Part shown: positions 60,825 to 61,223 of the stretch, one piece after another
How the letters are laid out: each line of letters begins with the position of its first letter
How positions within the stretch are numbered: the stretch's first letter is position 1
NCBI GenBank assembly: GCA_015660865.1
Contig: JACTUA010000006.1
Coordinates: forward strand, 151,777 to 215,776
DNA from: Methanomicrobiales archaeon
Lineage (GTDB): Archaea > Halobacteriota > Methanomicrobia > Methanomicrobiales > JACTUA01
Reading direction: 5' to 3'
DNA: 64,000 nt
The notes under the pieces: generated by a model
Told to the model about the DNA's origin: nothing
Databases searched by the model: none
The model's input: only the letters and a program-made list of their open reading frames with translations
Translations under genes and position numbers: made by a program

Positions 60825-61192
60825 AAGCTGGTGGGAGACCGACCGCTCAATTCCTTGAGGAGCTTATAAAGAACTCTCAGAAAGAGCCGAGTAATGGGGG
60901 GAAAGTGAATTCAGAGCCTATAGAGGGCGAGTCAGGTCAAATTTTACCTAATTCTAAAGTAAATAACACAGAATCAGAAACGAAGCCTATTAGTGAGATA
61001 TTTGCACAGCACACGCCAAACAAGCAACAGGAACTCCCAGAAGGCAACTCCGTTGAATGGGCATGGGGGCCATCATTCCAAGTGGCACGAATGGCACAAG
61101 TGGCACGAGCAGCTGCACACAGGGCGATCGAAATAGTATATAAAGAAAGATTAGGATTGGGATGGATAGGGTGGGTGTGGGGCTGTCTGTAG
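60821..61192 (+). CDS. Hypothetical protein in the AT-rich core of the element
   Basis: 123 aa with a TTG start that overlaps the previous stop (TTGA). The C-terminal codons run through the left TGGCAC array, and the ORF overlaps the convergent replicase ORF by 42 nt, so the 3' part may be fortuitous. Confidence 0.35.
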   Translation: MKAGGRPTAQFLEELIKNSQKEPSNGGKVNSEPIEGESGQILPNSKVNNTESETKPISEIFAQHTPNKQQELPEGNSVEWAWGPSFQVARMAQVARAAAHRAIEIVYKERLGLGWIGWVWGCL

Positions 61193-61223
61193 GAGCGTGC
61201 CATCTGTGCCATTCGTGCCAGGG
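61081..61223. repeat. Inverted iteron arrays: 3 x TGGCAC (61083, 61092, 61101) and 3 x GTGCCA (61197, 61206, 61215), 9-bp period, 86-bp spacer; candidate replication origin
   Basis: The left arm is agtggcacgaatggcacaagtggcacgag. The reverse complement of the right arm is cctggcacgaatggcacagatggcacgc, matching at 25 of 27 central positions. The spacer holds the AT-rich sequence gaaatagtatataaagaaagattaggatt and the G-run motif gggatggatagggtgggtgtgggg. Confidence 0.8.

Follow-up and report, generated by a model that had tools for sequence, protein, structure and literature searches.

The replication origins of staphylococcal pathogenicity islands (SaPIs) and of the phage-inducible chromosomal islands (PICIs) lie directly 3' of the rep gene and consist of 6–12 penta- or hexanucleotide iterons, a minimum of two iterons flanking an AT-rich centre on either side, with the two sets pointing in opposite directions (PMC9371898, PMC6092414). 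The cognate Rep protein is a self-loading helicase of superfamily 3 (SF3), sometimes fused to a primase, and its C-terminal winged-helix domain reads the iterons (PMC9371898). It has been shown that rep-ori fragments of these islands replicate autonomously, and their origin organization has been termed unique among bacterial replicons (PMC6092414). Here we analyze a stretch of 64,000 nucleotides from a Methanomicrobiales archaeon (contig JACTUA010000006.1, positions 151,777–215,776; hereafter the window, to which all coordinates refer unless another locus is named) that includes much of a putative integrated element of about 13 kb, with a tyrosine integrase gene at one end and a gene for a fused primase-helicase, hereafter the replicase. 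From the comparison of homologous loci and by analogy with the SaPI/PICI origins, we consider it probable that a 138-bp site at the 3' end of the replicase gene (61083–61220) is the cognate replication origin of this element, where the C-terminal part of the replicase would bind the iterons, each triplet of iterons would receive one helicase hexamer, an AT-rich core would open, and the self-loaded helicase would be followed by priming by the primase domain.

The site is built of six exact copies of one hexamer, TGGCAC on the forward strand at 61083, 61092 and 61101 and the complementary GTGCCA at 61197, 61206 and 61215, i.e., two triplets with an exact period of 9 bp. A preliminary description of this DNA had reported these six positions, the period and the mirror arrangement, and all were confirmed on the sequence. 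Array 1 (61196–61220, reverse strand) reads TGGCAC-gaa-TGGCAC-aga-TGGCAC on the replicase-sense strand and sits in the final 23 codons of the replicase open reading frame (ORF); array 2 (61083–61107, forward strand; TGGCAC-gaa-TGGCAC-aag-TGGCAC), its mirror, is located 45–68 nt beyond the replicase stop codon. The dyad centre, at 61151.5, falls on the stop codon itself (61151–61153). A repeat search recovers the two arrays as 25-nt arms (61083–61107 and 61196–61220) that are 92% complementary and 88 nt apart, the longest inverted repeat within 60000–62500. Thus, the inverted arms noticed at the outset are real, but when taken as 27-nt arms they pair at 23 of 27 positions rather than at 25, and the gap between the arrays, originally given as 86 bp, measures 88–90 nt; the spacer as delimited here (61108–61195) is 88 bp long. 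The hexamer is not enriched in the window as a whole because its 21 copies compare with 24.5 ± 5.2 expected from shuffled sequences; of these 21 copies, 6 are packed within 138 bp in mirror orientation and at an exact spacing of 9 bp. TGGCAC-N3-TGGCAC is found nowhere else in the window, the other matches carrying two mismatches and being at the level of chance, and an Rfam search of the window identified two tRNAs and nothing at the array site. The arrays are far above chance expectation and unique in the window.

The replicase gene occupies 61151–63700 on the reverse strand (849 aa for the longest ORF; public annotations start at 63661, which gives 836 aa) and encodes, in this order, a Prim-Pol (archaeo-eukaryotic primase-polymerase) domain (residues 86–243, 62972–63445; PF09250, E 2.9e-38), a PriCT_1 helical domain (residues 274–333, 62702–62881; PF08708, E 1e-11), an SF3-like helicase module, a winged-helix-like domain and a disordered tail, all read from the same strand. 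The helicase module (61211–62638) contains the Walker A motif GDTGKGKSR and the Walker B motif VIDESD and has an SF3/D5-like fold. The C-terminal winged-helix-like domain (61307–61498), with a helix-helix-beta-hairpin-helix arrangement and a predicted local distance difference test (pLDDT) score of 87–91, is the candidate iteron reader. The tail (61154–61210) lacks conservation and comes out as disordered in the structure prediction (pLDDT < 50), and its codons consist mostly of array 1 and spacer sequence. An identical replicase is annotated in metagenome-assembled genomes (MAGs) of Methanomicrobiales archaea and is present on 21 public contigs. In a homology search with the whole protein, relatives cover only the N-terminal third, i.e., the Prim-Pol part; the helicase family was found by searching with the C-terminal 496 aa alone, which retrieved 253 proteins at E ≤ 0.001 among the candidates scored, with 41–48% identity at about 95% query coverage; relatives in the family overall have 41–53% identity. 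This large family spans the C-terminal ~470 aa of the replicase, is fused to primases of four types (Prim-Pol, NrS-1-type, DUF3854 and zf-CHC2), and is found in Methanosarcina, Methanolobus, Methanospirillum, Methanoregula, the DHVE2/Aciduliprofundum group, Chloroflexi/Dehalococcoidales, Caldisericales and others. The conserved core stops at ...CPDALRS (~61245), and the last ~30 residues, which hold array 1, are not conserved.

Among Pfam models there is no match to the helicase module, and a family-profile search of the PDB sequences likewise returned none. An AlphaFold2 model built on 120 sequences (pLDDT 91.3, predicted template modelling score 0.88) consists of a beta-rich N-terminal domain, a P-loop ATPase core, a helical bundle, the helix-helix-beta-hairpin-helix unit and the disordered tail. 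Foldseek comparison of this model with the PDB yielded matches at E-values from 6e-8 to 1e-4, namely the C-terminal helicase of NrS-1 (6e-8), SaPI1 PriRep1 with DNA (2e-6), the D5-like PrimPol of African swine fever virus, SaPI5 Pri-Rep and the helicase of the SV40 large T antigen (1n25). Given these structural matches and the lack of any match among PDB sequences, the module appears to be an SF3/D5-like helicase by fold and yet a separate sequence family. At the level of the fold, and with both Walker motifs present, the replicase is thus predicted to be a self-loading SF3-type helicase. Searches of the helicase module against PLSDB plasmids gave no match and against catalogued phages one weak partial match (Virus Rctr41k, 24% identity), and no similarity to plasmids was found for the DNA of the origin region. 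The closest relative of the Prim-Pol domain (P0002, 45% identity) is encoded on a Methanomicrobiales contig (L008, JASEIH010000022.1) that also carries a phage portal gene, i.e., in a head-tail virus, which indicates that the primase and helicase halves of the replicase have different evolutionary neighbours. In another locus (L226, 495–6348), a 48%-identical helicase is encoded between a tyrosine integrase and Terminase_6N and carries TGTAAC/GTTACA arrays in the tail of its gene, and from this context the helicase family appears to be present also in provirus-like or satellite-like elements.

To compare gene ends across the family, 50 genomic loci encoding the helicase module were retrieved and scanned with neither the sequence nor the period of the repeats assumed, a cluster being defined as three or more copies of a 5-mer with constant spacing. 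The near-gene zone, from –250 to +700 bp relative to the gene end, amounts to 42 kb and contains 34 array clusters, every one with a period of 9, compared with 11 clusters of period 9 and 11 of other periods in the remaining 289 kb. Inverted period-9 arrays with at least two units per arm are present in 17 of 45 gene-end windows and in 3 of 265 control windows of equal size; with at least three units per arm, the respective counts are 11 of 45 and 0 of 265. None of the other periods from 7 to 12 is enriched at these 45 gene ends. About seven additional loci carry degenerate arrays, and all three extra relatives that were checked individually carry arrays as well. The preliminary description had made the origin interpretation dependent on the presence of arrays in homologous elements, and the 17 gene ends bear out this expectation. 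It had also associated them with Prim-Pol genes; arrays indeed occur in related elements, but they are linked to the helicase module, and the Prim-Pol domain is not shared. Among the 16 proteins and domains of the element that were tested, the helicase module alone has homologues in array-bearing loci; none were found there for the Prim-Pol domain, the ribbon-helix-helix (RHH) and helix-turn-helix candidates or a 123-aa ORF that overlaps array 2. It follows that the cis-element travels with the helicase module.

The closest homologue (L139, 53% identity, from a Methanomicrobiales MAG) contains three TGGCAC units in its gene tail, at a position and with a core equal to those of array 1, followed by GTGCCA twice and then three times, and its spacer DNA is unrelated to that of the window. 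The TGGCAC core, shared by four relatives in all, is found also in L229 and in the bacterial (Dehalococcoidales) locus L161, and other lineages have cores of their own, i.e., TGTTC, TGGGAC, TGTGAC, TGTCAC, TGTACC, TGTTAC, TGTAAC, GTGAAC, TACCGG and TGGAGA, with three units per arm at 9 bp throughout. Judging by these sequences, variation of the core with register and place kept is the pattern of replicon-specific iterons. The layout itself varies within the family. In the Chloroflexi members (L161, 4890–5132; L188, 800–1071), both arrays are inside the replicase ORF, in the linker before a C-terminal zinc-ribbon (CxxC...CxxC), so that the Chloroflexi origin would lie wholly within coding sequence, with a ~30-bp spacer that is not AT-rich. 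In L173 (~3870–4420), the entire unit of two arms and spacer (~235 bp) is present as a tandem duplicate, and in L154 (~5450–5630) there are three alternating arrays.

Compared with the SaPI/PICI origins, the site in the window has six exact 6-nt iterons, a number within the range of 6–12 found there, arranged as 3 + 3 and mirrored about the 88-bp spacer with its core of 23% GC. It is located at the replicase 3' end, with the dyad centre on the stop codon; the putative initiator is a predicted SF3-type helicase with an archaeo-eukaryotic primase fused to it and a C-terminal domain that could read the repeats, and the fold of its helicase module matches the SaPI structures 7pds and 7ola. As among SaPIs and PICIs, the iteron core differs between replicons and register and place are constant, and the locus belongs to an integrated element with an integrase at one end, close in size to those islands (~13–15 kb). 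In contrast to them, the host is an archaeon, one array and half of the spacer are inside the replicase ORF, the helicase shows no detectable sequence similarity to SaPI Rep and no match to a Pfam model or a PDB sequence, and no genes for helper-virus interaction, packaging or interference are recognizable. Among the known kinds, the site is best filed with the SaPI/PICI origins, as a putative new, archaeal instance in which the helicase comes from a different family.

Several other systems share some of these features. The origin of the Sulfolobus plasmid pRN1, which is replicated by ORF904, has been delimited to at most 166 bp downstream of orf904 and displays dyad symmetry (PMC4234260). Like our locus with its putative origin, pRN1 has an archaeal host, a replicase with the order Prim-Pol/SF3/winged-helix and an origin just downstream of the gene; unlike it, pRN1 has a near-continuous stem-loop of ~100 nt that is stated by the authors to be without iterons (PMC4234260), compared with 25-nt arms of 9-bp iterons about an 88-nt spacer, and the helicase families are different. 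In the staphylococcal cassette chromosome mec (SCCmec), a 23-bp stretch just downstream of the gene for the D5-like helicase Cch2 carries three 5-nt iterons, to which the C-terminal domain of this protein binds (PMC7581432). This length would fit three units at a 9-bp period; however, Cch2 needs one direct array, with inverted repeats being dispensable for binding, the SCCmec primase is a separate polypeptide, and the host is bacterial. According to one article (PMC4234260), the alpha protein of phage P4 is a primase-helicase whose C-terminal winged-helix domain binds short origin repeats. The P4 alpha primase is of the Toprim type and its origin is not at the gene 3' end, in contrast to the replicase studied here. 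In P4 the repeats are octamers, and crr, a second cis site, is also needed. The core origin of SV40 and other polyomaviruses is served by an SF3 helicase-initiator that assembles as a double hexamer on inverted sets of pentanucleotides beside an AT tract; the SV40 DNA-binding domain is N-terminal, unlike the one proposed here, its pentamers are contiguous in a 27-bp palindrome, and the system is that of a eukaryotic virus. In the classic iteron plasmids (pPS10, RK2, F, R6K), there are likewise repeats beside an AT-rich region near the rep gene, but these are direct iterons of 17–22 bp that keep helical phase, and their initiator is a Rep of the WH1-WH2 kind, through which the host's DnaA, DnaB and primase are recruited, whereas our locus has inverted 6-bp cores with a 9-bp period and a primase-helicase as the only replication protein. 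Accordingly, of the earlier proposal of an origin with iterons and an unwinding element in the classic plasmid layout, the origin part gains strong comparative support and the classic plasmid type gives way to the SaPI/PICI type.

The middle part of the spacer, 61127–61158, is AT-rich. Its 30-bp minimum of 23% GC, at 61127, is among the lowest 0.6% of all 30-mers in the window, so that the AT-rich stretch pointed out originally is real; three or four other places in the element are, however, equally AT-rich. By analogy with the AT-rich centre of the SaPI/PICI origins (PMC9371898, PMC6092414), we regard it as a candidate DNA-unwinding element. Between the arrays, two further arms (61110–61120 and 61175–61185) form an 11-nt inner dyad that prolongs the palindrome. 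When treated as single-stranded DNA, the segment 61070–61235 has a strongly favoured fold (–37.5 kcal/mol, z = –6.3), in which the pairing is limited to the 25-nt arms and the inner dyad and leaves a loop of ~50 nt.

Similar arrays are found in viral contigs of IMG/VR; the pattern scans of this database fixed the 9-bp period by design, and the period itself was tested only in the helicase-family loci. The plain pattern of three TGGCAC-N3 units proved not to be specific and was rejected as a signature: its matches, in more than 120 viral contigs, are without exception same-strand runs, and one of these (L210) is collagen-like Gly-X-Y coding sequence. The inverted pattern TGGCAC-N3-TGGCAC...GTGCCA-N3-GTGCCA with a gap of 75–105 occurs in 10 contigs and the opposite orientation in 31, nearly all of them with a spacer that is either AT-rich or alternating CG (CGCGCG). 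In 14 of the ~20 loci scanned, the large ORF flanking the arrays encodes a D5_N/DUF5906 or VapE-like primase-helicase, the 3' end of which abuts the array, and several unrelated phage lineages are represented. The scrambled hexamer TCGGAC, which was meant as a negative control, gave 7 matches, with arrays beside D5-like primase-helicases. Because this control returned the same architecture, the identity of the hexamer does not appear to be special; taken together, the TGGCAC and TCGGAC matches imply that the array architecture is general among SF3 primase-helicase replicons, with the core as the variable specificity element. Altogether, more than 40 phage contigs with inverted period-9 hexamer arrays were collected (L129–L138, L189–L225), which suggests that such arrays are a general, searchable origin signature. 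A search of the viral contigs with the whole replicase gave no match, and neither did tblastn of the element proteins against the first 10 viral loci.

The site architecture, the co-occurrence of arrays and helicase family at gene 3' ends, the invariant 9-bp register of the lineage-specific cores and the SF3 fold of the replicase model are observed; binding, melting, double-hexamer loading and priming we infer by analogy, as follows. After excision of the element, the C-terminal domain of the replicase would bind the six TGGCAC iterons, and each of the opposed triplets that flank the spacer would nucleate one helicase hexamer. The AT-rich core would then melt, the helicases would load themselves onto the single strands, and the Prim-Pol domain would make the first primers, after which the host replisome would take over. 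Several observations weigh against this reading. When the C-terminal unit was modelled alone (pLDDT 87), its top matches in a fold search were winged-helix regulators, but these were not significant (best E 0.49), and by eye the putative recognition helix and the iteron core did not clearly vary together. The 7 public copies of the element show 100% identity to one another, and hence there is no covariation within the lineage, and no episomal or circular form of the element was seen. About 40% of the homologous loci have no detectable arrays in the fetched region, the relatives often have a ~30-bp spacer that is not AT-rich (many Chloroflexi and some archaea), and the orientation of the arms is reversed in many of them, so that one mechanism may not fit all members of the family. 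Finally, autoregulation and copy-number control are further roles that a replicase-bound site can have.

An alternative explanation is that the arrays are an operator or control site, bound by the replicase or by a small protein of the element, that governs convergent transcription, rep expression or copy number, for example through handcuffing or as a partition centromere. The junction of convergent genes would suit such a role, and RHH-type regulators and centromere sites typically have short repeats arrayed in both orientations. In plasmids, iteron sets commonly serve both initiation and control (PMC4980987). We nevertheless find a control site unlikely, given that the helicase module alone, and no small protein of the element, is kept in the array-bearing loci, that the arrays are at the 3' end of the gene rather than at its promoter, and that equivalent layouts in experimentally studied systems are origins. 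A recombination site (for attachment, dimer resolution or inversion) or a hairpin or cruciform terminator for convergent units would account for the inverted repeat and the stable single-strand fold, and the element does encode a tyrosine integrase. However, the element's integrase end is ~5 kb away from the site and its opposite end 7 kb away, a candidate attachment repeat is located elsewhere, a related integrase is present in only 3 of the 50 homologous loci, and a plain hairpin would leave the 9-bp triplets unexplained; moreover, archaeal terminators are T-runs, not hairpins. This possibility can be given very little weight. A regulator binding array and a recombination site were the two alternatives named in the preliminary description, and both are weakened by the findings that the arrays track the helicase module only and that the attachment candidates are kilobases away.

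The repeats could also be a by-product of coding, with no function at the DNA level, if the replicase tail (GTNGTDGT) were a tripeptide-repeat or collagen-like sequence. Nine nucleotides are three codons, the same-strand runs of three TGGCAC-N3 units in viral contigs include the Gly-X-Y coding example described above, and in many relatives both arrays are within the ORF. But the second arm in the window is a reverse complement and lies past the stop codon, the encoded tail, predicted to be disordered, is not a conserved part of the protein, the cores vary by lineage with register and mirror symmetry constant, and the arrays of phage contigs are intergenic. The mirror arm past the stop codon together with the intergenic examples excludes a purely coding origin of the repeats, and we attach next to no credence to this explanation. 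The last alternative concerns a part of the site only, namely the proposal that a G-quadruplex at 61159–61182 is an essential structural component of the origin. The four G-runs are present as initially described and conform to the canonical pattern (four runs of at least three G with loops of 1–7 nt). However, the frequency of such motifs in this GC-rich window is that of chance (8 vs 6.4 expected from shuffles), and of 17 homologous origin regions only two contain one, the nearest relative being among the 15 that lack it. In addition, the inner dyad arm at 61175–61185 overlaps the last two of the four G-runs and accounts for them, and the stretch doubles as coding sequence for the replicase tail. 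An essential quadruplex is therefore quite improbable.

The gene order of the element, as seen in public contigs that reach past the window, is a tyrosine integrase, six small ORFs, the replicase and the arrays, beyond which there are one or two convergent small ORFs and then a block of ORFans with a 1285-aa protein. The only candidate attachment repeat is a 16-bp direct repeat, ATCTTTAAGCAG[A/G]AGA, at 6531–6546 and 19479–19494 of L001, the latter copy corresponding to 54168–54183 of the window; this weak sequence match suggests that the element is about 13 kb long and ends near 54168–54183. The tRNA-Val gene (51436–51511) was considered as an attachment site, which was not demonstrable; it is 2.7 kb outside the putative borders. 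Apart from the replicase and the integrase, every gene of the element is an ORFan in Pfam and PHROG scans, and no genes for helper-virus induction, packaging or interference (terS, capsid remodelling) were matched in these databases, which is weak evidence given the number of ORFans.

The 123-aa ORF (60821–61192, forward strand) overlaps array 2 and the spacer. Its overlap of 42 nt with the replicase ORF (61151–61192) and the tails GTNGTDGT and QVARMAQVAR had been described correctly, but its status as a convergent gene is doubtful: it is annotated in only one of 7 annotations, its GC content at third codon positions (GC3) is 0.43, compared with 0.75 for the replicase and other large genes, and neither a family match nor, in related loci, a homologue is found for it. 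By these sequence features, it is probably not a gene. The region of ~900 bp beyond the replicase gene (60264–61150) has a GC content of 47% and contains ORFs of 186 aa and 123 aa with GC3 of 0.43–0.45, against 0.75 nearby; it could be either a non-coding origin flank or a set of recently acquired genes. The largest gene of the element (55360–59217, reverse strand) encodes the 1285-aa ORFan, which has a long Ser/Gly/Pro-rich low-complexity C-terminal part and no Pfam or PHROG match. Just outside the putative border, a gene for a 222-aa protein with a faint KfrA_N-like match contains three 116-nt direct repeats with 63–79% identity (L001 20319–20776, ~52886–53343 in the window).

A literature search identified no replicon or origin defined for mobile elements of Methanomicrobiales, in agreement with the statement to this effect in the preliminary description. 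If the site at 61083–61220 is the origin, the cassette of replicase gene and origin (~61050–63800, 2.8 kb) would be a candidate shuttle-vector replicon for an order of methanogens without genetic tools. The experimentally characterized design of the bacterial SaPI/PICI origins would be extended to archaea, and a function would be assigned to a family of more than 250 uncharacterized proteins. Inverted triplets of 5–6-nt cores, spaced at 9 bp where a primase-helicase gene has its 3' end, provide a simple origin signature that can be searched for, also in mobile elements and phages that are unannotated. The natural pairs of Rep and iteron, with cores such as TGGCAC, TGTTC and TGTGAC, are material from which a DNA-recognition code could be derived. 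More broadly, we tentatively put forward, as a possibility well short of probable when taken as a whole, that the window contains the first archaeal example of this origin type and that a previously unrecognized helicase family of methanogens, DHVE2 and Chloroflexi carries its own origin, in a strict 9-bp register, within the 3' tail of the gene that encodes it. Under this scenario, the register could reflect the geometry of helicase loading, with 9 bp corresponding to about –51 degrees per step, a value close to the 60 degrees between subunits of a hexamer, and the ~13-kb element with integrase, primase-replicase and origin could be an archaeal counterpart of a virus satellite.

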